In this document: positions 540 through 27,466 of the stretch, piece after piece | Position numbering within the stretch: position 1 is the first letter of the stretch | Layout of the letters: each line of letters starts with the position of its first letter | Source of the DNA: Candidatus Saccharimonadota bacterium | GTDB lineage: Bacteria; Patescibacteriota; Saccharimonadia; Saccharimonadales; Saccharimonadaceae | Length of the DNA: 32,000 nt | Assembly: GCA_020160975.1 (NCBI GenBank) | Contig: JAIUPJ010000001.1 | Location: 840,001 to 872,000 of the forward strand | Reading direction: 5' to 3' | Notes under the pieces: generated by a model | Told to the model about the DNA's origin: nothing | The model's database searches: none | Seen by the model: the letters and a program-made list of their open reading frames with translations, nothing else | Translations under genes and position numbers: made by a program

Positions 540-2076
540 AAATCGGACTTTCGAGGAAATTGTCGCCCGTTTGGGCGATTTTTTCTTTGGCCAAAGCGAA
601 GCGAGGCCAGATGTTTCCAGAGGGAGAAAAAGAAATTGCTGGCGCGCGCAGGCGCGCTTTTTTGTTTTCTAAAACGAGGTTAGAGCCAAAGATTTCGAGG
701 CAAAGCGACTTTTTGGCAAGTAAGTCGGTGCTTTTTGTTATCTCACAGATAGAAACGGCAGTTTCTATCCACTTTTTCAGCGGTTCGAGCCAAAGATTTT
801 GACCAAGCGTTAGCTTGGATAGTGTTTCTTCAAAACTCTTCTTTTGGCTCATAATCTCCGTCTTTTTGTCGGTGTATATTTCTCGATCAATGTCTTGGTC
901 GAGATAACTATCGAGTAAGCGTTGGAGCTTTGCGGTTAGTTGCGCGATGTTTGTCTGTAAATCTGACGTTTTCGATTGGTTTCGGCTTTGTTCATTGGCT
1001 TGGTCGGTTTCCATAAGCTCGCGCAACTTGTTCGCCCATGCCTTCGGCATGGCGTACTCTCGCAGTAGTTCGGTCAGTTGTGCGTCTAGCAACTCCTCGC
1101 GGATGTGTGGTTCAGGACAACGCGGAGTGTTCTTGCACTTTTTCGTGCAGTGGTAGTAGGTGTAGTGGTGAACATTACCATTTTTCTGCCGTTTAGTTTG
1201 GCTCTCGCCAGTAACCATCATGTTGCACGACCCGCAGCGGAGTAATCCGCAGAGTGGTTTTGGCTCGTTGGTTTTACTGACGCGCTTATGTCGACGTTTT
1301 TCAAACACCGCTTGCACCGTGTCAAAGAGTTTCTTTGACACAATTGGAGTGTGTTTACCCTCAAATACCTCGCCAGCGTAGCGAAAATGCCCGTAATAAA
1401 ACGGATTCGTGAGCATTTTGGCTACCTGGTCTTTTTTGAGTGGTTTGTTGCCTTTGGTTTTTATACCTTTACTGGCGAAAAAGTCGGCGATATCTTGTAG
1501 TCGCTGGTCGCCTCGCGCGTACAACTCAAACGCTTCAACGACAAGCGGAGCTTGTTGCTTGTCCACGATGACCGTCTTGGTGCGAACATCATTTATGTAG
1601 CCAAGCGGGGCACGACCAGGCATTTCGCCTCGCCGGACTTTTTGGCGCAAGCCCCGTTTGGTGTTTTCGGACAAATTGTCTACATAATATTTGCTCTGCC
1701 CAAACGCGATAGACAGCATGAACTTACCTTGCGATGTGTTCTCAAACCAAAAAGTCGGGAACTTCAGATTTGCGAGATGGGTTTGGTCGAGCAAATAGAC
1801 GATTTGTCCGCCGTCTATACTGTTTCGTGCCAGTCGGTCTGGATGCCACGCGATGATGCCATTGGCTTCGCCACGTTCAATTCGCTTTAGTAACTCGGCA
1901 AAGATAGGGCGACCAGGAGTTTTGGCGGATTTCTTCTCAATAAGTTCATCGACAATTTGCAAGTTTTCGTTTCGCGCATAAGCGCGAAGCTCGACTAACT
2001 GCGCCTCAATAGACAGGACTTGTTTGTCCTCTACGTCTGTACTTTTGCGCGTGTATAAGATATATTTTTCGTTCAT
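517..2076 (-). CDS. Large serine recombinase (integrase)
   Basis: 520 aa from ATG 2076, preceded by GGAGGTGAAA; the longer ORF to 2160 has no RBS. It has a resolvase-type catalytic N-terminus (YILYTRKSTDVEDKQ, WHPDRLARN), a Cys-rich zinc ribbon (CGLLRCGSC...YYHCTKKC) and a coiled-coil tail. The 3' end runs through IR1 and 23 nt into the antisense of tRNA-Gly. Confidence 0.9.
   Translation of the reverse strand: MNEKYILYTRKSTDVEDKQVLSIEAQLVELRAYARNENLQIVDELIEKKSAKTPGRPIFAELLKRIERGEANGIIAWHPDRLARNSIDGGQIVYLLDQTHLANLKFPTFWFENTSQGKFMLSIAFGQSKYYVDNLSENTKRGLRQKVRRGEMPGRAPLGYINDVRTKTVIVDKQQAPLVVEAFELYARGDQRLQDIADFFASKGIKTKGNKPLKKDQVAKMLTNPFYYGHFRYAGEVFEGKHTPIVSKKLFDTVQAVFEKRRHKRVSKTNEPKPLCGLLRCGSCNMMVTGESQTKRQKNGNVHHYTYYHCTKKCKNTPRCPEPHIREELLDAQLTELLREYAMPKAWANKLRELMETDQANEQSRNQSKTSDLQTNIAQLTAKLQRLLDSYLDQDIDREIYTDKKTEIMSQKKSFEETLSKLTLGQNLWLEPLKKWIETAVSICEITKSTDLLAKKSLCLEIFGSNLVLENKKARLRAPAISFSPSGNIWPRFALAKEKIAQTGDNFLESPILVRVRGL
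535..664. repeat. IR1 left copy (arm Y, starts with the CACCAA core)
   Basis: Reverse complement of 2219-2348, 129/130 identical (mismatch at 651 vs 2232), compared base by base. Confidence 0.95.
563..585 (+). terminator. Rho-independent terminator-like hairpin 3' of tRNA-Gly
   Basis: TCGCCC-GTTT-GGGCGA is followed by TTTTTT. It lies inside IR1 and inside the antisense tail of the recombinase ORF. A second GC hairpin plus T-run sits at about 643-667. Confidence 0.5.
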
Positions 2077-2218
2077 TTTCACCTCCAACTTAAATAGCCG
2101 CCTCGTTGCACACAATCCGGTATAACCAAATTGTACGAGACGGCTATCTAAGCCATACAAAAAGTCATACCGATTTGATTGTGTGCATTTCTATTTTACC
2201 AAAAACCGCCCATGGCGG

Positions 2219-2348
2219 CAAAAAAGCGCGCTTGCGCGCGCCAGCAATTTCTTTTTCTCCCTCTGGAAACATCTGGCCTCGCTTCGCTTTGGCCAAAGAA
2301 AAAATCGCCCAAACGGGCGACAATTTCCTCGAAAGTCCGATTTTGGTG
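2219..2348. repeat. IR1 right copy (arm Y inverted)
   Basis: Reverse complement of 535-664. It overlaps IR2-left by the 6-bp core TTGGTG (2343-2348). Confidence 0.95.
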
Positions 2349-2493
2349 GAGTTTTACGACTTTGCTCGAACCAATTTTGAGAATTGAAGCTCAGCCCCAA
2401 CGCCCGCGCGCCCCACCAGAAAAACCCTTTAACTGATTTTTCATTTCTCCCGCCGAGATTTCTTTTTAGTTGAAAAGGGTGTTTTCTGGTGGT
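2343..2493. repeat. IR2 left copy (arm X inverted)
   Basis: Exact reverse complement of 4606-4756 (151/151), checked segment by segment. Confidence 0.95.
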
Positions 2494-2499
2494 AGTATG

Positions 2500-4470
2500 T
2501 CAGGCTGCGACGCTTTTTTTACCTGTTAGCGCAAGATGAGCGAGATTGTCTGCCGTTCGCTGCAAGAGAGCTTGCTTCTCTGCGTACTCTCGTGGATCAA
2601 CCAAATACACTGCACCTTTGTAACCATCAGAGACAATTCGAAGCATTGGTTCATTGGCTCCACTTCGTCTTAGTTCGCGCAGAACATCACCGATCTTCAT
2701 CTCAACCCCAACATCGGGGAACAAGCAAATCAAGCCTTTCTCACGGCAAAGCATTTGTGCGTGTCCGCTGTAACCGTCGTTATTTACGATAATGACAGCT
2801 CCTTCACGCGGTAGCGCGTCTTCTCCCTGATGATTACCCATTACTCCTGCAATCGTAAACTTGTTTTCACTCCAAAAAATTACAACTCCTGCATCATCAC
2901 CATTGTGGTGATACTCGTCTAGCAGCTTGAGCGTGACATCGCCAACCCCAGTTGCTCGACACCAGTCGATCGGCTCTATATGTGAAGGAAACTCAACCTG
3001 TCTCCCACTACTTTCTAAAGATTTTTTGGGTAATGGTCGAACTTGCAAGATATTGTTGCCGTAGAACTCGACCTGAACGGGTTTGCCAAAAAACTGCTCT
3101 GCTAGTAAAGCGGCATGTACTGCGCTGTGGGTATTGCGCGTCGAATGACCGCCGATGCCATCAACAGTATGATCGGGTATGCTATGTAGTATTTTTGCGG
3201 ACTCAACACTTGTGAACAGATGTTCTGTGACTTTCGTTTTATCAAATAATAACCCGCCATGCTGGGTTTCAACAACCATCAAGTTTGGATGAGAGGCTTG
3301 GCTATCAACAGTACCGATAGGCGTTTTGTCTTCCCAGTGATCGCTAAGCGAATCGCAATATTGCTGGATTACTAATCCCATTTGCTCACCGTCTATACCA
3401 TGCTGCTTCCTATATTGAACTGCACGAGGACTATTGGTAGAGGCAAACACCTTTTCTATAGCCTGTCGAAAAGCTACCGGGTCACGCGGGTCTGCCGCTA
3501 CCGAATCATACACTCCCGCTCCTGTCATATCCTCTCCGTCTTCGGAACGTACTGCGCTGCTTCGTATCGCGACTACTCGCGGTATTTCTGCGATAGGATA
3601 CCCATCCTCATCGAACTTGCTCTCATTTGTAACGAGTTTTAGTGCTGCCGCATTTAGTTCAGCTAATTGCTCCTCAAACATGGCAGTATTATGTTGCCAT
3701 AGTTCGTACAGGCTAGTGTCTACAGGTATGAAAGGTGGAATATCTATCTCCTGTTGGTAATATTTTTCACCCGCAGTATTTCTTAACAACTCAAGATGTT
3801 CGGCAAACACCATTAAGTTAGCGGCTTTAGCTCCGTACGATTGACGTAGGCCCTCAAGTCGATCCATATCACCCCGTGGAGCTTCTAGTGCTCTTTGGGT
3901 AATTTGATGACGTGCTACAACCGCACGATACCCACTTTCGATAAACTTGGTTAGTGCCTCTGGAGCTTCCGTGTCATCTGAGCCAAGACGAATAACCCTT
4001 TCTGCTTTGTAGGGGATGCTGACCTGCTCATCCCGATAGTCAATCGGCGCATAAACTGTTCTCCCCTCAGGATATAACGGACTACGCACAAACCGTAATC
4101 TCATAGAAGCTGGCCACCTATCAAAGAACGAGCGAGCCGTTTCTAGGGCACTACCTGGTGGACTAGTATCAAAGTTTTCAGCTGTATTCTCAACATCGAT
4201 GTTAAAGGCCGTACGTCTTGCGATATCTGTGGCTCGTTCTAAGCGTGAACCCTTGGATGCGTATCTTAAAGACCGAAGTGCATCATAAAGTGTCTTTTCT
4301 TCTGGCGTTCTTTCTGGCCATTTATCGTCTAGCTCTTGGTGAAGTTCATCGGGAAAGTGCCCAGCTGCATGAAAAAGAAATCTACGAAGAGCTTGCTGGT
4401 TTCCTTCAGCAACTCCAGGCCAACGCGCAGATGCTTCATCAACTGAAGCAATGGGTTTTAACTCCGACAT
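2500..4470 (-). CDS. PEP-utilising-enzyme-like protein: novel N-terminal region, PPDK_N-type ATP-grasp and C-terminal phosphohistidine swivel domain, no TIM-barrel domain
   Basis: 656 aa. YGAKAANLMVF, VVAIRSSAVRSEDGEDMTGAGVYDS and AIEKVFASTNSPRAVQYR match the PEP/pyruvate-binding ATP-grasp domain. AVIIVNNDGYSGHAQMLCREKGLICLF matches the mobile His domain. The first ~200 aa have no motif I recognise. Confidence 0.75.
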   Translation of the reverse strand: MSELKPIASVDEASARWPGVAEGNQQALRRFLFHAAGHFPDELHQELDDKWPERTPEEKTLYDALRSLRYASKGSRLERATDIARRTAFNIDVENTAENFDTSPPGSALETARSFFDRWPASMRLRFVRSPLYPEGRTVYAPIDYRDEQVSIPYKAERVIRLGSDDTEAPEALTKFIESGYRAVVARHQITQRALEAPRGDMDRLEGLRQSYGAKAANLMVFAEHLELLRNTAGEKYYQQEIDIPPFIPVDTSLYELWQHNTAMFEEQLAELNAAALKLVTNESKFDEDGYPIAEIPRVVAIRSSAVRSEDGEDMTGAGVYDSVAADPRDPVAFRQAIEKVFASTNSPRAVQYRKQHGIDGEQMGLVIQQYCDSLSDHWEDKTPIGTVDSQASHPNLMVVETQHGGLLFDKTKVTEHLFTSVESAKILHSIPDHTVDGIGGHSTRNTHSAVHAALLAEQFFGKPVQVEFYGNNILQVRPLPKKSLESSGRQVEFPSHIEPIDWCRATGVGDVTLKLLDEYHHNGDDAGVVIFWSENKFTIAGVMGNHQGEDALPREGAVIIVNNDGYSGHAQMLCREKGLICLFPDVGVEMKIGDVLRELRRSGANEPMLRIVSDGYKGAVYLVDPREYAEKQALLQRTADNLAHLALTGKKSVAA

Positions 4471-4605
4471 AATTAACTAAACATAATACAATAAAAGCTC
4501 ATCGTTCGCAATGATTTGATAAATTCGTCGCGCTGGAGCGCATAGCGCGGCGGCTTTGCCGCCTGTGCGAAGCCCCAGCGCCTCTACTGCTTATGCAGTA
4601 GTCGA

Positions 4606-4756
4606 ACCACCAGAAAACACCCTTTTCAACTAAAAAGAAATCTCGGCGGGAGAAATGAAAAATCAGTTAAAGGGTTTTTCTGGTGGGGCGCGCGGGCGTT
4701 GGGGCTGAGCTTCAATTCTCAAAATTGGTTCGAGCAAAGTCGTAAAACTCCACCAA
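4606..4756. repeat. IR2 right copy (arm X, ends in CTCCACCAA)
   Basis: Exact reverse complement of 2343-2493. Homologous, at an estimated 75-80 percent by eye, to 27256-27434 in direct orientation. Confidence 0.95.
4701..4755 (+). pseudogene. tRNA-Ala-like remnant forming the end of arm X
   Basis: GGGGCTGAGCT..GGTTCGAGC..AACTCCACCA resembles the 5' end, T-loop and 3' end of bacterial tRNA-Ala (GGGGCTATAGCT..GGTTCGATCC..AGCTCCACCA, recalled from memory). It is only 55 nt and has no anticodon arm. Confidence 0.4.
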
Positions 4757-4780
4757 GATAATTTTGAATAATTACCCCTG

Positions 4781-4808
4781 TAAAACGTCGAGTATAATCG
4801 GCGTTTTT
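4781..4808 (+). terminator. Rho-independent terminator-like hairpin just outside element 1
   Basis: AAAACGTCGA / TCGGCGTTTT forms a 10-bp stem (one G-T pair) with a 6-nt loop, followed by a T-run. Confidence 0.5.
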
Positions 4809-5669: not shown

Positions 5670-5917
5670 ACTTCATAAACTAAATTCTGCCCGTCTAGTT
5701 AACGAAAATACTCCACCAACCATGTCGAGGCTCGCTAAGGCCTCCATGGCTTGGCGGGTTTCGCTTTTGATGATAAGTTCAGTGGTTTAATAAATCACTG
5801 GATAATATTAAATACTCTGCAATATACATTAGCTTAAAGCAGTCTATCTTCTCTGAATCAAAAGTTAGAAATATGTCTACTATGCGGCACCAAGAAATTA
5901 TCACATCATCACCCCTG

Positions 5918-5944
5918 TAAAACGTCGATTGAATCGACGTTTTA
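5918..5944. terminator. Perfect 13-bp-arm palindrome (bidirectional terminator or protein-binding site)
   Basis: TAAAACGTCGATT-G-AATCGACGTTTTA. It is homologous to the hairpin at 4781-4808. Confidence 0.4.
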
Positions 5945-7738: not shown

Positions 7739-7760
7739 AAAACATATTATAACATAAAAT

Positions 7761-7787
7761 TAGGCAATTATACGCTTAACACACCCA
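7761..7787. repeat. Solo IS1595-type terminal fragment
   Basis: TAGGCAATTATACGCTTAACACACCCA equals the reverse complement of 21696-21722 (26/27), which is the transposase-proximal end of the IS at 20682-21721. Confidence 0.6.
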
Positions 7788-20681: not shown

Positions 20682-21721
20682 GGGTAATTATAGGTTGGGT
20701 ATCGGTAACTAAGTTTTAAGAACGCTTGTTAGTAAGGCTTTTGTACATCAGGCGCTTGCCGTTGATGTTATCAAACCAAGCCTCAAAACGCTCGCCGTCA
20801 GTCATGCCGCGTGTGTTCCAACGGAACGTGTACTCGTCGCAGTAGAGCTGCAAATGCTTTGCGCTTACGTGGTGGTAAATGCCGTCAATACCGCGCTTTA
20901 GGTGCGACCAAAAACTTTCTGCTGTGTTCGTACTAGCCATGCCGTTTACAAACTCTTTTGCGCCGTGATTAACGCTTGCGTGCTTGAAACCGATTTTAGG
21001 TAGGGTGCGATACGGCATGTGTTCGTCTGTGTAGATCGTAGCGTCAATGTCGATGTTCTTACGAGCTAGGGTCATAAGCGTGTTGCTGCCTGTGTCTTTA
21101 GTTGCGACTGCACGGAGCTTGCCGCCACGTTCAACCATACCGACAACTGGCGTTTTGCTATTCTTGCTGCCGTGTCCTTGAGCGCCTTTACCAGTTAGTT
21201 GCTTTAGTCGTTTGTGATAGTGCTTGTTGCTGTCCTTGCCGCCTATATACGCCTCGTCCATTTCAACCTCGCCAGTTAGCTTTTCAAAGCTGCCAGTTTC
21301 AAATACGTGGCGTATGCGCTGGAGCATAAACCATGCAGTTGCTTGACGTACCTTTATGAACTTAGAGAGCTGGATTGAAGATACGCCCTTTTTGATACTT
21401 GTACATAGATAGATTGCTAGTAGCCATTTACGCAGAGGTATTTTGCTGTCTTCAAAGATACTGCCGACACGGACGGTGAATTGCTGCCGACATGAGGCAC
21501 ATTTGAATAGCTTGCCAGCGTTTTTACCGCTCGTGTACTTATACGCCTTGCCGATAACGCCACATTGAGGGCAAGTTATCTCGTCTGGCCAACGACGCTC
21601 TTGTATGAAATCCCGACAAGACTGCTCGTCAGGGAATCTGTCTAGTAGTTCGATGAGGTTCATATCTTCCATACTTCCATTGTACACCTCTGTTGTGGGT
21701 GTGTCAAGCGTATAATTGCCT
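20682..21721. mobile_element. IS1595-family insertion sequence (ISXO2-like), approximate ends
   Basis: Imperfect terminal inverted repeats: GGGTAATTATAGGTTGGG (left) vs the reverse complement AGGCAATTATACGCTTGA (right). AAAAT flanks both ends (20677-20681 and 22-26 after 21700, i.e. 21722-21726). A single transposase gene lies inside. Confidence 0.5.
20716..21672 (-). CDS. IS1595-family transposase
   Basis: Start MEDMNLIELLDRFPDEQSCRDF. It has an N-terminal zinc ribbon (CPQCG...CASCRQQFT) and an ISXO2-like DDE region (EVEMDEAYIGGK...YTDEH...NTAESFWSHLKR). Confidence 0.88.
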   Translation of the reverse strand: MEDMNLIELLDRFPDEQSCRDFIQERRWPDEITCPQCGVIGKAYKYTSGKNAGKLFKCASCRQQFTVRVGSIFEDSKIPLRKWLLAIYLCTSIKKGVSSIQLSKFIKVRQATAWFMLQRIRHVFETGSFEKLTGEVEMDEAYIGGKDSNKHYHKRLKQLTGKGAQGHGSKNSKTPVVGMVERGGKLRAVATKDTGSNTLMTLARKNIDIDATIYTDEHMPYRTLPKIGFKHASVNHGAKEFVNGMASTNTAESFWSHLKRGIDGIYHHVSAKHLQLYCDEYTFRWNTRGMTDGERFEAWFDNINGKRLMYKSLTNKRS

Positions 21722-21968
21722 AAAATTATTACACACCTTATATAATGCGGCGGCCATTCGAGCGGGCCGTCCCCGACCCGACCCGCCGGGCCAATCACAT
21801 TCTTGCTCAAAATCGGTACGACTTAGTTGTATAAATCCACCATGCGATCATTCTTAGACGCACCGGCATCTTTTTTTGATTGGCTTGCACGTTGATGAAA
21901 GTGCTTATTTGTGGGGTGTAAACATAGTTTCTGGGTCGAGATAAACCCCAGAAGGAAATAGAACCTGT

Positions 21969-23642: not shown

Positions 23643-24591
23643 ACTTCAAACACCAGCGGACCGACTAAATTACACAGGTGACCTTACGCCAGTCATTGAG
23701 CGTGTCTGTGAAACTTATGGCGTTGGTCAGTTGAGCGCAAGTAGTATCGTTGAAGTCGGTTATGAGGATTGTAATGTCGTCATAGAAACCGACCAAGCAA
23801 AGTTTGTCGCCAAGATGTTTGCTAAGACACGAACACCAGTAGACATTACTCGCTATGCCACCACAATGGAGAAGGTCGTACAGGCGGGGGTACATCACCC
23901 AGAACTATTAACAACTGATACTGGCGAAACGACATATAGCGATAGTGGCGTTACGCTCGTTTTAATGCGATTTGTTGAAGGTAAGAGTTTCTTGGAGCTA
24001 GACCGCTCCCCGTCAGACGAAGAGCGTAAAGCCGTACTGGAACAGGCAGCTACGGTAAACAGTATTGATTATGAACCACCCTATCTATTTGATAGCTGGG
24101 CTATTCCAAACATTCACGCGATGCTTGAAAAGGTAGAGCAGTATATTGCGCCAGAAGACCTACCATTAGTTGAGCAAGCGATTGCAGGCTATGATGCTAT
24201 CCCTACAGACGACCTGCCACACTGTTTTGTACACGGCGACTTCACCAAAGCTAATGTCATTAAAGGCGAAGATGGCAAAATATATATTCTAGACTTTTCG
24301 GTTGCTAATCGTTATCCACGGATACAAGAGCTGGCAGTAATTGTTGCCAACCTACTGCACGATGACGGCGAAGAAACGCTAGAGCAGAAATGCAAGCGAG
24401 TAGCAGATGAATACAGTGAATTTAATCCATTGAATGACCAGGAGCGCAAGCATCTACCTGCCTACGCACTGGCTGGCATAGCTATGGAATTTATGGGCGC
24501 ACATCAAGAGAAGTATATAAACGGCAACGACACAGAGGAGACCGACTATTGGCTCAGCCTGGGGCGTGAGGGCTTGCGCAAGGCTCAGTAG
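23635..24591 (+). CDS. APH-family phosphotransferase (aminoglycoside/homoserine-kinase-II-like)
   Basis: Catalytic loop CFVHGDFTKANVI and metal-binding YILDFS are present. The start overlaps the upstream stop (ATGTCTGA). Confidence 0.75.
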   Translation: MSELQTPADRLNYTGDLTPVIERVCETYGVGQLSASSIVEVGYEDCNVVIETDQAKFVAKMFAKTRTPVDITRYATTMEKVVQAGVHHPELLTTDTGETTYSDSGVTLVLMRFVEGKSFLELDRSPSDEERKAVLEQAATVNSIDYEPPYLFDSWAIPNIHAMLEKVEQYIAPEDLPLVEQAIAGYDAIPTDDLPHCFVHGDFTKANVIKGEDGKIYILDFSVANRYPRIQELAVIVANLLHDDGEETLEQKCKRVADEYSEFNPLNDQERKHLPAYALAGIAMEFMGAHQEKYINGNDTEETDYWLSLGREGLRKAQ

Positions 24592-26250
24592 ATAACAAGC
24601 TCCCTGCTTTTAAGTGAAGCTGGGATGCGCGGTGCGCTTGATAGACTACCGTCAACCAACGCTCCAAAAAGTTTAAGTAAATTCTGTAGCTCCGCACCAA
24701 TTCGGAACTGAAACGGAAATTGTCGCCCTCTGGGGCGATTTTTTCGCTTGCGGCGCGTAGCGCCTGCCAGCGGTTTTTCAGGGGGGAGGTTAGAAATTGG
24801 TCGTCATTTATGACGACTTCTTTTTGTCGCATTTTGAGGTTCGACCCGAAGATTTCGAGTAATAGCGACTTTTTGGCTCGTAAATCATCACTCTTGGCGA
24901 CTTTACAGATAGAAACGGCAGTTTCTATCCATGTTTTCATCGGTTCGACCCAGGTCGAAACGCCCAGCGTTGCCTGCTCGATTTGTTCATGCAAAAGTTT
25001 CTTTTTGCCCAATATCTCCGCTCGTTTGTCTTGGTATAGTTCACGCTCTACGTCGCCGTCTAAGTAGCCGTCGAGTAGACGCGCCAGCTTGTCGGACAAC
25101 TGCGCGATAGCTTCTTTATCGTTTCCAGTAATACACTCAAAGTCGGCTTTTTCACTCATCTCGTCGTTACGTATCAGCTCGCGCAGTTTGTCCGCCCATG
25201 CCGTAGGCATGGCATACTTCTGTAATAATGCAGATAGTTGTTTGTCCAGCTCCTCAGCTCTGATGTGCGGCTCTCGACAGACAACCGTCTTACTCTTGCG
25301 AGTGCAGCGGTAATACACATAAGTATGTATGTTGCCGTTCTTTTGCCGCTTTACATGCTTTTCTGCGGTATACATCATGCCGCATGAACAATACACCAAG
25401 CCGCATAGCGGCATTGGGTCATTTGTTTTTGGGTGCGGCTTACCACGCCGCTCTAAAACAACTTGCACTTGGTCAAATAAGCGCTTCGAGATAATGCCTT
25501 TATGCTTGCCCTCATGGACTTCGCCAAGATAGCAAAAATGCCCATAATAAAAGGGATTAGCCAGCATGCGTTTGATACGATTTTTATGATATGGCTTTTT
25601 ACCTGTCGTCTTTTTGCCGTTTACTTTGCCGCTGCGCGTTTGTATGCCTTTGGCATGTAGGAAATCAGCGATCTCATCGAGTCGTTGATCGCCTTTGGCA
25701 TATAACTCAAAAACTTCGCGCACAATTGGGGCAGTTTTCTTGTCTACTTTGGCTGTTTTGGTGCGCAGATCGTTATAATAACCGACTGGCGCAACGCCTG
25801 GCATTTCGCCACGCCGCACTTTCTGCCGTAGTCCACGCTTAGTGTTTACCGACAAATTATCGACATACTGTTTAGATGAATTAAACTCATTTGCCAACAT
25901 ATACTTGCCTTGTGGTGTATTTTCAAACCAAAAATGTGGGAACTTCAAATCAAGCAATACATGCTAATCGAGCATGTAAATAATCTGTCCACTATCTATA
26001 CTATTGCGCGAGAGTCTGTCGGGTAGCCATGCCAGTATTCCGTTTGCCTCACCAGTCGCAATATCAGCCAGCATCTTGTTGAACTTTTTGCGCCCTGGCT
26101 TTTTCGCCGTTTGTTTTTCTACAATTATGCCCGCGATACGCAAGCCCGTACGCCCGGAAAACTCCTTTAGCTCAATTATCTGCGCCGCCACAGATAATAT
26201 TTGCTTGTCCTCTACATCGGTGGCTCGTATATCCTCGGTGATGCTATACT
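24554..26250 (-). pseudogene. Decayed large serine recombinase (paralog of 517-2076)
   Basis: It is colinear with recombinase 1 along its length. There is an in-frame TAG where recombinase 1 has Gln (YMLD*HVLLDLKFP vs YLLDQTHLANLKFP, about 25961-25963). The catalytic YTRKST is replaced by ITEDIRAT, and there is no start codon. Confidence 0.85.
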
Positions 26251-26256
26251 CGAACT

Positions 26257-27174
26257 ATGGCAAAACATCTTTCAATTCTTCTTATCGGTAGTGGCGTCAT
26301 CGGCTCCGTGTATGCTGGTCAGTTTACACTAGAAGGTCATGGCGTTTCGGTTCTGGCGTTTGGAGAGCGTGAACGTAAGCTCGCAAAAGATGGGATTCGA
26401 CTCAAAAACGTACAAACTGGTAAAACAGAGGTTGCTAAGGTACAAGTGGCGGGCACGTCATCAGGCCAGCAGTTCGATCTTGTTATCGTCGCGCTGCGCG
26501 CTAATCAACTGGCGAGTGCTTTCCCGGCATTACGGAAGTTAAAAGGCTCGCCGCATATCGTATTTTTTGGTAACAATCCTGACGGGCATAAGATAATTCC
26601 TAGCGACCTACCCGGTACTGTCCAACTCGCTTTTCCGGGCATCGGCGGCAGTATCGTTGATGATGTTGTTGAGTATATTCCGGTCGATCAGCAGCCAACC
26701 TCGCTCGAAGTATCCGACTCGCCGACAAGCCAAGTAATTCATGACGTCCTAAGCGCGCGAAGGTTTACACTACAAGACATCGCTGATATGGACGGCTGGC
26801 TAGCGCATCACACAGTATTTATCAGTTGTATATCGGTTGCTATTTTGCGCAAGAACGGCCTGCCGGCCGATCTTGCGAATGACCGCGAGGCGATGCGCAC
26901 GCTATGTCGTGCGATCGAGGAAGGCTTCGCTATGTTAAAGGCGCAACACCTTGGCGGTGCACCAAAGAACCTCGTCACACTCCATAGTCGCTGGCTCCGT
27001 CCGATTGCTGTAATGTACTGGAGCAAGCTACTACGCTCACCAAAAGGCGAACTTTATTTTGGTGCTCACGCTCGGCACGCTCCGGATGAAGTCTACCAGC
27101 TGGCTACGTGGACGCTAGCGCGCTGCCCAAAGAATTACGACGCACCACGCCTTAAACATCTATTAGAGCAGTGA
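26257..27174 (+). CDS. Ketopantoate-reductase (ApbA/PanE)-family NAD(P)-binding oxidoreductase
   Basis: It has an N-terminal Rossmann motif LLIGSGVIGSVYAG and the DLVIVALRANQL pattern. The substrate is not inferable. Confidence 0.6.
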   Translation: MAKHLSILLIGSGVIGSVYAGQFTLEGHGVSVLAFGERERKLAKDGIRLKNVQTGKTEVAKVQVAGTSSGQQFDLVIVALRANQLASAFPALRKLKGSPHIVFFGNNPDGHKIIPSDLPGTVQLAFPGIGGSIVDDVVEYIPVDQQPTSLEVSDSPTSQVIHDVLSARRFTLQDIADMDGWLAHHTVFISCISVAILRKNGLPADLANDREAMRTLCRAIEEGFAMLKAQHLGGAPKNLVTLHSRWLRPIAVMYWSKLLRSPKGELYFGAHARHAPDEVYQLATWTLARCPKNYDAPRLKHLLEQ

Positions 27175-27194: not shown

Positions 27195-27366
27195 CAAAGC
27201 ACGTCGGCTTTAGCCGACTAGAGACACGCAGTCTCTGCCACAAGTGGCAAGGCGGACCACCAGAAACCCCCTTTCAACTAAAAAAGAAATTCCGCGGGGG
27301 AAATCTCAAAATAATGCAAAGGGTTTTTCTGGCGGGGCGAGCGGGCGTGAAACGCTCGCAGGTGTC
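27195..27366 (+). ncRNA. Candidate structured RNA / structured DNA module of arm X (copy 2; copy 1 at about 4530-4700)
   Basis: The module is a series of hairpins shared with copy 1, with compensatory changes: GTCGGC/GCCGAC vs GGCGGC/GCCGCC, and TTCC/GGAA vs TCTC/GAGA. It is intergenic, with a terminator downstream at 27437-27466. It belongs to no RNA family I recognise. Confidence 0.3.
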
Positions 27367-27433
27367 GGGGCTGAGCTTGCGCTTCAGCCCTCACACTCAA
27401 ATTCGGTTCGAACTTGGTCATAAAACTCCACCA
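27367..27433 (+). pseudogene. tRNA-Ala-like remnant at the end of arm X2
   Basis: GGGGCTGAGCTT...GGTTCGAAC...AAACTCCACCA. It is 67 nt and does not fold into a cloverleaf. Confidence 0.35.
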
Positions 27434-27436
27434 AAG

Positions 27437-27466
27437 TAAAAACCAGGCTCTGAGTCTGGTTTTTTA
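27437..27466 (+). terminator. Rho-independent terminator (possibly the original tRNA-Gly terminator)
   Basis: AAAAACCAGGCTC-TGA-GTCTGGTTTTTT: a 7-bp stem flanked by an A-run and a T-run, directly after the last CACCAA junction. Confidence 0.65.

Follow-up and report, generated by a model that had tools for sequence, protein, structure and literature searches.

The window, by which we mean the whole stretch of 32,000 nucleotides of Candidatus Saccharimonadota DNA analyzed here, contains a tRNA-Gly gene, genes for two large serine recombinases (LSR1 and LSR2) and two full copies of a conserved module. Between the tRNA and the second module copy these features form an array, made up of element 1 (540-4755), a junction remnant, a decayed fragment, and a module-tail-like stretch together with LSR2. 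In the list below, X is the segment that follows the tRNA CCA end and includes the 3' end of the LSR gene, Z is the outer flank that follows a full module, and M' is a partial inverted copy of the module.

464-539, + strand: tRNA-Gly(GCC) (ARAGORN; Rfam tRNA, 71.7 bits); its CCA end provides the B (chromosomal) arm of attL, junction ...CCCGCACCA/AAATCGG
517-2160, - strand: LSR1, large serine recombinase, 547 aa (Pfam Resolvase, Recombinase, Zn_ribbon_recom)
535-664: X, arm 1 of the inverted repeat IR-X, containing the CACCA core, the 3' end of the LSR1 coding sequence and a terminator hairpin now placed after the tRNA
2219-2348: X, arm 2 of IR-X, repeating the LSR1 3' end in inverted orientation and lying upstream of the promoter-like site of LSR1
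2344-2493, - strand: M', partial inverted module copy (Pb, 3' strand of P1, tail), model match 125.8 bits
2500-4470, - strand: cargo of element 1, PPDK_N-domain protein, 656 aa, between two inverted module copies
4541-4755, + strand: full module copy 1 (covariance model 196.6 bits, E = 1e-54); P0 4549-4554/4558-4563; P1 4571-4583/4694-4706; Pa 4584-4590/4595-4601; Pb 4602-4625/4669-4691; Pc deleted; tail 4707-4755
4727-4760, + strand: P half-site and attR core, from the GGTTCGA box (4727-4733) to ...CTCCACCA, by three-way junction comparison
4782-4807, + strand: terminator-like hairpin in Z, directly 3' of copy 1
5888-5943, + strand: junction remnant, GCGGCACCA and then an 80% copy of Z (the terminator region after copy 1)
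21741-21842, + strand: decayed module 3' fragment ending ...TTGTATAAATCCACCA, then TGCGATC (model match 34 bits)
24554-26227, - strand: LSR2, decayed recombinase (tblastn 57% identical to LSR1 aa 39-543; Pfam)
24660-24699: module-tail-like stretch abutting the 3' end of LSR2
24695-24745: LSR2 core and X'
26257-27174, + strand: cargo of element 2, ApbA/PanE-like reductase, reading towards copy 2
27195-27433, + strand: full module copy 2 (covariance model 214.8 bits, E = 6e-60); P0 27203-27208/27213-27218; P1 27222-27234/27360-27372 (weak here); Pa 27235-27241/27244-27251; Pb 27252-27273/27318-27340; Pc 27341-27347/27353-27359; optional tail hairpin, GGGCTGAGC with GCTTCAGCCC
27443-27465, + strand: hairpin CCAGGCTCTGAGTCTGG and T6, directly 3' of copy 2, aligned in an Rfam near-miss

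The last codons of LSR1 extend into the tRNA-Gly gene. Homologues of this protein number in the thousands, and precomputed Resolvase, Recombinase and zinc-ribbon domains are present in all of them. LSR2 is a pseudogene whose one frame (26227-24692) contains an internal in-frame stop and lacks the first 38 codons; the LSR2 region (24554-26330) overlaps the start of the ApbA gene. On the minus strand at 2193-2321, three terminator-like hairpins in a row are followed by a TG-extended -10 promoter-like site (2221-2193), and the LSR1 gene looks strongly insulated from upstream transcription. The internal module copy was also considered as a leader or attenuator of the LSR gene, a role that was rejected since the three terminators and the separate promoter-like site lie between this copy and the LSR1 start.

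An earlier note on this DNA had proposed that regions 4530-4756 and 27195-27434 are copies of one structured module, placed in the same orientation relative to each recombinase. The two regions do align, with 76% column identity over ~240 nt, one covariance model matches both, and copies 1 and 2 both lie on the strand opposite their own recombinase gene. Each copy ends ...AAAACTCCACCA and is followed by a hairpin and a T-run.

The layout of the fold was taken from recurrent single-sequence folds of a dozen diverse copies and drawn on a MAFFT alignment (A4), and a covariance model built from A4 was used to re-align the full copies (A6). The resulting structure is a four-way junction, ~190 nt in total, in which P1 closes Pa, a long helix Pb and a GC hairpin Pc, with a hairpin P0 lying outside. 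P1 is a 13-bp long-range helix in which GGGGCU pairs with an upstream AGCCCC and the partners are 110-170 nt apart. Pa has 7 bp, and Pb has 18-20 bp and an A-rich loop of ~40-50 nt with a nearly invariant CGGCGGG. Pc is a 7-bp GC hairpin that is deleted in copy 1 and in contig L076. A tail of ~50-70 nt follows P1 and ends in the half-site. An additional tail hairpin, P4 (GGGCUGAGC/GCUUCAGCCC), was rejected because it shows no covariation and is missing in half of the family.

Compensatory changes, the test for a structured RNA, are present in every helix. In a sample that is small (14 full copies from ~12 lineages), 91.5% of cells are paired in A6 as opposed to 75.1% in shuffles, and 85.2% as opposed to 73.7% in the sequence-only alignment A4; pairs changed on both sides number 37/54 in the model-fitted A6 and 30/54 in A4. 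The covariation score is 0.426 for A6 and 0.306 for A4, compared with 0.143 for the shuffles in each case, and 0/500 shuffles reached the observed score with either alignment. When the partners were slid by 1-3 columns, the top score was 0.095 (A6) and 0.087 (A4). RNAalifold on the plain MAFFT alignment recovered 14 pairs only, and the MFE z-score for copy 1 is -6.4. Thus the collection of homologues beside related recombinases revealed strong covariation in the module helices, and the proposal of a conserved, structured, element-borne unit is borne out by the family alignment and this covariation. Two of the helices first drawn from the window are also real: P0, GGCGGC-TTT-GCCGCC (4549-4563) versus GTCGGC-TTTA-GCCGAC (27203-27218), for which 4/6 pairs changed on both sides within the family, and the long helix formed by 4607-4625 with 4669-4686, which covaries. 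An inner hairpin that had been credited with compensated pairs, TCTC/GAGA versus TTCC/GGAA, did not survive, with 67.6% of cells paired versus 67.2% in shuffles and 0 two-sided changes among 28 family members.

The end of both copies had additionally been read as a tRNA-Ala-like arm. In its full form this reading makes the module an element-encoded tRNA-Ala- or tmRNA-like RNA, with GGGGCUG and ...CUCCACCA as an aminoacylatable acceptor stem. Such a stem can be drawn: the pairs G1-C, G2-C, G3-U and G4-C are available in most module copies, seven such pairs are available in L036, and the module ends in CCA and is then followed by a terminator. However, the stem has no covariation and pairs no better than shuffles (60.7% of cells versus 62.0%, with one changed cell), whereas GGGGCU covaries with the upstream strand of P1 instead, for instance as CCCUG/CAGGG in L078. 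Depending on the target tRNA, the 3' end becomes GAGCCA or GCGCCA, with GGGGCU unchanged, and inspection showed that a T stem cannot be drawn around GGTTCGA. Furthermore, no tag reading frame is conserved in the module, where indels of 17 and 12 nt occur and stop codons differ. ARAGORN and Rfam scans found only the tRNA-Gly gene at 464-539 in the window; no module copy contains a cloverleaf, a tRNA or a tmRNA by ARAGORN or the Rfam tRNA and tmRNA models, and the sole Rfam near-miss in the tmRNA test is on the wrong strand, with 12 bits. The acceptor-stem reading is therefore hardly credible. Identity as tRNA-Ala was rejected, GGGGCTGAGCT being part of the internal long-range helix and not an acceptor strand. 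A permuted two-piece tmRNA, seen by eye in TCGAACC-ACCA (4603-4612) with GGTTCGA (4727-4733), was likewise rejected, as the upstream strand varies, GGTTCGA is constant and no model matches.

Other classes were considered in the same manner. Protein coding was rejected because a 41-codon frame, open in copy 2, is interrupted in both copy 1 and L071, and the indels are not all multiples of three. An IS110-like guide RNA was rejected because the loops are constant across different tRNA targets and only the DNA core changes. The module does not fit an integron attC site either, given the serine recombinase and the four-way junction. A serine-integrase attP agrees with what was found, the adjacent recombinase having Resolvase, Recombinase and zinc-ribbon domains. 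The module has no match in Rfam 15, neither with gathering thresholds nor when the two regions were scanned permissively, in agreement with the earlier impression that it belongs to no known RNA family. In another Saccharibacteria MAG, we observed a stretch of 61 nt (L066:3421-3481; GGGGCTGAATGAGTTCGAC...CAGCTCCACCA) that passes the Rfam tmRNA threshold with 48.6 bits; this match covers the tRNA-like domain only, without any of the mRNA and pseudoknot part.

When one genome per species was scanned with a degenerate pattern, 70 matches were obtained, five of them module-like and all five from Candidatus Saccharimonadales/Saccharibacteria, and a tighter pattern applied to metagenomes gave five further modules. 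Across these pattern scans of genomes and metagenomes the module was found only in Saccharimonadales/Saccharibacteria, and it had no match in phage collections, plasmid collections or viral contigs. The copy-2 module is 98% identical in four assemblies (the window, L059, L020 and L074), and in L059, L020 and L074 the 98% identity takes in the cargo gene as well as the module, with different DNA downstream. The DNA directly after ...CCACCA is unrelated among the four, which argues for a site-specific recombination junction at the CCA end. At L020:995-2284 the ApbA gene is inverted relative to the module in comparison with the window and L059, and 46 C-terminal codons are duplicated as an inverted repeat.

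Contigs for comparison were fetched solely through protein homologues of LSR1 (62-92% identical) and were then scanned with the module profile and covariance model. Together with the window, they provided 12 elements (the window, L078, L079, L081, L091-L097 and L098, the last near-identical to L097). In 12/12 elements the strand of the LSR gene also carries a partial module, ~200-290 nt upstream of that gene. In 12/12 the LSR gene overlaps, at its 3' end, a tRNA gene on the opposite strand, and it always reads towards the tRNA. The target tRNAs are Gly-GCC, Gly-CCC, Gln-TTG, Gln-CTG, Asn and Ser. Beyond the cargo genes, a full module faces outward wherever the contig extends far enough. The cargo varies by element and includes reductases, hydrolases, NUDIX, MarR, acetyltransferase, restriction-modification genes and beta-lactamase. 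Two ~4-kb LSR contigs were examined as candidate free circles and proved to be ordinary integrated copies at tRNA-Gly(CCC). Many contigs with LSR homologues measure only 1.7-2.6 kb, which matches the LSR segment enclosed by the inverted repeats described below; assemblies thus break at this point, and MAGs probably understate how common the cassettes are.

Comparison of the 12 elements revealed three-way junctions: attL joins tRNA to X, attR joins module to Z, and an internal intact attP joins module to X. The X that follows the tRNA CCA is identical to the X that follows the internal module copy, and the module is likewise the same whether X or the outer flank Z comes after it. This is the pattern attL B-O-P', attP P-O-P' and attR P-O-B', in which the hybrids are reciprocal; no unoccupied attB was recovered. 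The module has only a core of 5-7 nt in common with the tRNA, and this core varies with the target: CACCA(A) for tRNA-Gly, AGCCA for tRNA-Gln, GAGCCAA for tRNA-Asn and CGCCA for tRNA-Ser. Because the last 5-7 nt of the module track the discriminator-CCA of the target, we take the "tRNA-like" end to be the P arm of attP, and GGTTCGA together with ...CCA would serve as a recombinase P half-site at the DNA level. The suggestion that the module is a tRNA mimic that defines the target thus holds in one respect, since its end is tied to target choice, and fails in another, since there is no tRNA-Ala or tmRNA acceptor stem.

By sequence comparison, attP consists of the last ~30 bp of the module and the initial ~25 bp of X, which is the LSR gene's 3' end, with an imperfect dyad symmetry seen by eye only. 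The module box, (G/A)GTTC(G/T)A, starts 29 nt from the module end, and the T-loop box of the tRNA, GGTT(A/C)GA, starts 25 nt from the tRNA end, which amounts to a shift of 4 bp. For an A118-type integrase, the zinc-ribbon-domain (ZD) motif of attB has been placed 5 bp nearer the centre than that of attP (PMC3783163). By analogy, the 4-bp box offset may correspond to this ZD-motif offset, to which it is close, though not equal. X and Z each carry a terminator after the module/tRNA junction. Since X carries one, the tRNA keeps a terminator after integration, and the module inherits the old terminator of the tRNA; the hairpin at 4782-4807 would then be the displaced downstream flank of the target.

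The window also holds features that the earlier note had not described, namely the inverted partial copy at 2340-2493, the inverted pair 535-664 / 2219-2348 and the decayed fragment at 21741-21842. The 3' 154 nt of copy 1 (4606-4759) recur in inverted orientation at 2340-2493 with 99% identity (I1), and the two arms of IR-X (I2; 535-664 and 2219-2348, 130 nt) are also 99% identical. I1 brackets the cargo gene at 2500-4470 and I2 brackets LSR1, and the two pairs meet at the pentamer CACCA. There, M' and X form an intact internal attP (core 2340-2348, junction ...CTCCACCA/AAATCGG), which is inverted and sits between the cargo and the LSR gene. Two abutting inverted-repeat pairs of this kind are present in 7 independent elements, with the same arm boundaries in all, a module pair of 154-199 nt, an X pair of 115-138 nt and arm identities of 97-100%. 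The boundary of the module repeat coincides with the 5' base of Pb, so that P0, Pa and the 5' strand of P1 are absent from the internal copy.

Inverted duplications of this kind could arise as assembly or amplification chimeras, and assemblers do struggle here, as many LSR contigs are only ~2 kb long. Nevertheless, the same repeat pairs occur in 7 independent elements from different projects and assemblers, one of them within a 764-kb contig, the arm boundaries are equal throughout, and arm identity is sometimes 97-99% and not always 100%. Based on this recurrence we conclude that the inverted repeats are not an assembly artefact, and a chimeric origin is exceedingly improbable. A single-event origin of the inverted internal attP was also set aside, since it could not be derived from canonical attP x attB recombination, from an inversion or from a tandem dimer. 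If excision took place by attL x attR recombination, it would yield a circle with two inverted ~300-bp repeats, an attP in each, flanking the recombinase gene. In L077 a full module lies directly upstream of the LSR gene; this arrangement is perhaps a flipped isomer, in which case the cargo segment may invert.

Several parts of the array appear to be remains of older insertions. The decayed fragment at 21741-21842 is probably the attR remnant of an older cassette. In L079 (6002-7669), a second LSR gene runs up to the CCA end of a full module and is not accompanied by inverted repeats of its own. Since it ends at the module as others end at tRNAs, we suggest that arrays grow by repeated insertion, and either modules serve as targets or elements stack at the tRNA. 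Two further observations concern the same region. The junction remnant at 5888-5943 lies 1.1 kb downstream of copy 1 and encloses only an HTH-DUF805 gene. A 34-nt inverted repeat (91%; 7754-7787 / 21696-21729) brackets ~14 kb of genes and ends just before the decayed fragment; these repeats may be the ends of another element.

The fold could act as RNA or as DNA. One alternative to a functional RNA is that it acts at the DNA level only, either as single-stranded DNA in replication, transformation or transfer, or as an accessory recombination or architectural site. Several results are in line with this proposal. The helices contain 16 G.U cells versus 17 A.C cells, which favours neither strand and is a low number of wobble pairs for an RNA. 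Folding of the reverse strand is nearly as good as that of the forward strand (z = -5.8), no conserved promoter was found upstream of full modules, and the module is always located at the recombination site and is kept as an inverted repeat. On the other hand, the partners of P1 lie 110-170 nt apart around three hairpins, an arrangement that is typical of RNA and hard to extrude from a duplex, and a terminator follows every module copy. In addition, serine integrases use duplex DNA substrates and no accessory sites are known for them (PMC3783163). Because of the long-range helix and the terminators, RNA is the better guess, and we hold an action at the DNA level only to be unlikely, though not negligibly so. 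Most likely, the folded part would be a transcribed, tRNA-gene-like RNA domain that travels with the cargo.

Together, the results lead us to propose that the module is probably the non-coding end of small integrative gene cassettes in Saccharibacteria, which are driven by an LSR and inserted at tRNA CCA ends. Recombination, excision and transcription of the cassettes are all predicted from sequence. In the proposed mechanism, the LSR would bind the module tail as a P half-site in which the GGTTCGA box copies the T-loop box of the tRNA, 4 bp further from the crossover, and strand exchange would occur inside the discriminator-CCA core. Integration would leave the tRNA intact with the terminator of X and place the module before the old terminator of the tRNA, and repeated insertions would produce arrays such as that at 540-27433 of the window. 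With the inverted pair in place, a cargo transcript in either orientation would meet the folded domain and then a terminator; candidate roles for the fold are insulation or stability, or that of a recombination accessory.

Some points weigh against the cassette proposal. Canonical serine integrases require an attP of no more than ~50 bp, and the module is far longer than an att arm, as had been remarked before; a requirement of ~50 bp gives the fold no job. The retention of an intact inverted attP and the constant direction of the LSR towards the tRNA are likewise left unaccounted for. It has also to be considered that the module might be a chromosomal housekeeping RNA gene that is merely used as an integration target, as tRNA and tmRNA genes are. 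Copy 2 adjoins ordinary-looking genes (HD domain, Mur-ligase family), and the second LSR gene of L079 ends against the CCA end of a module as others end against tRNAs, both of which would be expected of such a gene. However, the window holds two full copies that are only 76% alike, along with a partial copy and remnants. The module goes with the LSR to four kinds of tRNA, its end fits the tRNA that is targeted, and its neighbours are variable accessory genes. We consider a housekeeping gene very improbable on these grounds. A stronger version of the cassette proposal, in which the module is an active cofactor (for instance an RNA or ssDNA scaffold that sets directionality in place of a protein factor), the excised form is a flip-flop circle and the whole is an integron-like gene-capture system at tRNA genes in ultra-small CPR bacteria, seems to us distinctly unlikely. 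Overall, the original observation is real, lies far beyond chance and is partly confirmed; its interpretation is partly supported, as the reading as a structured module has been extended and the reading as tRNA-Ala has been refuted.

Little is known of the routes by which Saccharibacteria, a group of reduced epibiotic bacteria, exchange genes. The cassettes, each consisting of a recombinase and one to a few accessory genes and stacked at tRNAs, look like a main route of accessory-gene traffic in this group. The recombinase system is of an already known kind, and no description of the cassette element or of the module was present in the literature searched; the ~190-nt covarying fold and the conserved inverted internal attP are absent from Rfam and from that literature. 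About 190 extra covarying bases and an inverted attP have been kept across recombinases down to ~60% identity, which points to selection that is not described by the ~50-bp attP model. The module fold is thus a candidate for a new family in RNA databases. As tools, the elements offer matched attP/attB pairs for four kinds of tRNA (Gly, Gln, Asn and Ser) with a visible core rule.

Comparison with known systems places the cassettes between several of them. The tRNA-Ala/tmRNA tRNA-like domain shares with the module the strings GGGGCUGA..., GGUUCGA and ...CUCCACCA, and a G3-U70-like pair can be drawn. In contrast to that domain, the module has no acceptor stem, T arm or tag frame, and the strings belong to an internal helix and a DNA half-site. 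The likeness to the 2-micron FLP/FRT system is one of layout only, in that the predicted excised circle would be split by two long inverted repeats with a recombinase site in each, and the recombinase gene would lie on one of the segments. The tyrosine recombinase FLP recombines the two identical sites, and serine integrases normally do not recombine attP x attP. Furthermore, the cassettes, unlike the 2-micron circle, have no replication genes, and their circle is a prediction.

Integron cassettes and their attC sites are similar in that small accessory-gene units are stacked beside a recombinase and the structure of the site is better conserved than its sequence. The integron recombinase IntI, of the tyrosine family, acts on a folded single strand, and attC is an imperfect hairpin of 57-141 nt, whereas the present system has a serine recombinase, a four-way junction and a recombinase in each cassette. 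Genomic islands that target tRNA and tmRNA genes with tyrosine integrases, reportedly described by Williams in 2002-2003, similarly use the 3' ends of tRNA genes, form tandem arrays at one tRNA and carry an element-borne imitation of the target 3' end. Their recombinase belongs to another family, and they replace tens of bases of the 3' half of the tRNA, whereas the cassettes share 5-7 nt with the target and their mimic is not a tRNA fragment.

The serine integrases (A118/LI, phiC31 and Bxb1; Rutherford et al. 2013, PMC3783163) have the same Resolvase, Recombinase and zinc-ribbon domains, hybrid attL and attR sites with a short common core, an attP beside the integrase gene and a distal box that lies further out in attP than in attB. 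In the cassettes no directionality factor is evident, and the box offset is 4 bp and not 5 bp. In contrast to these integrases, the P arm of the cassettes is the 3' end of a 240-nt module conserved in structure, insertion is aimed at the very CCA end of several tRNA genes, and the integrated element retains an intact inverted attP flanked by ~300 bp of identical sequence.
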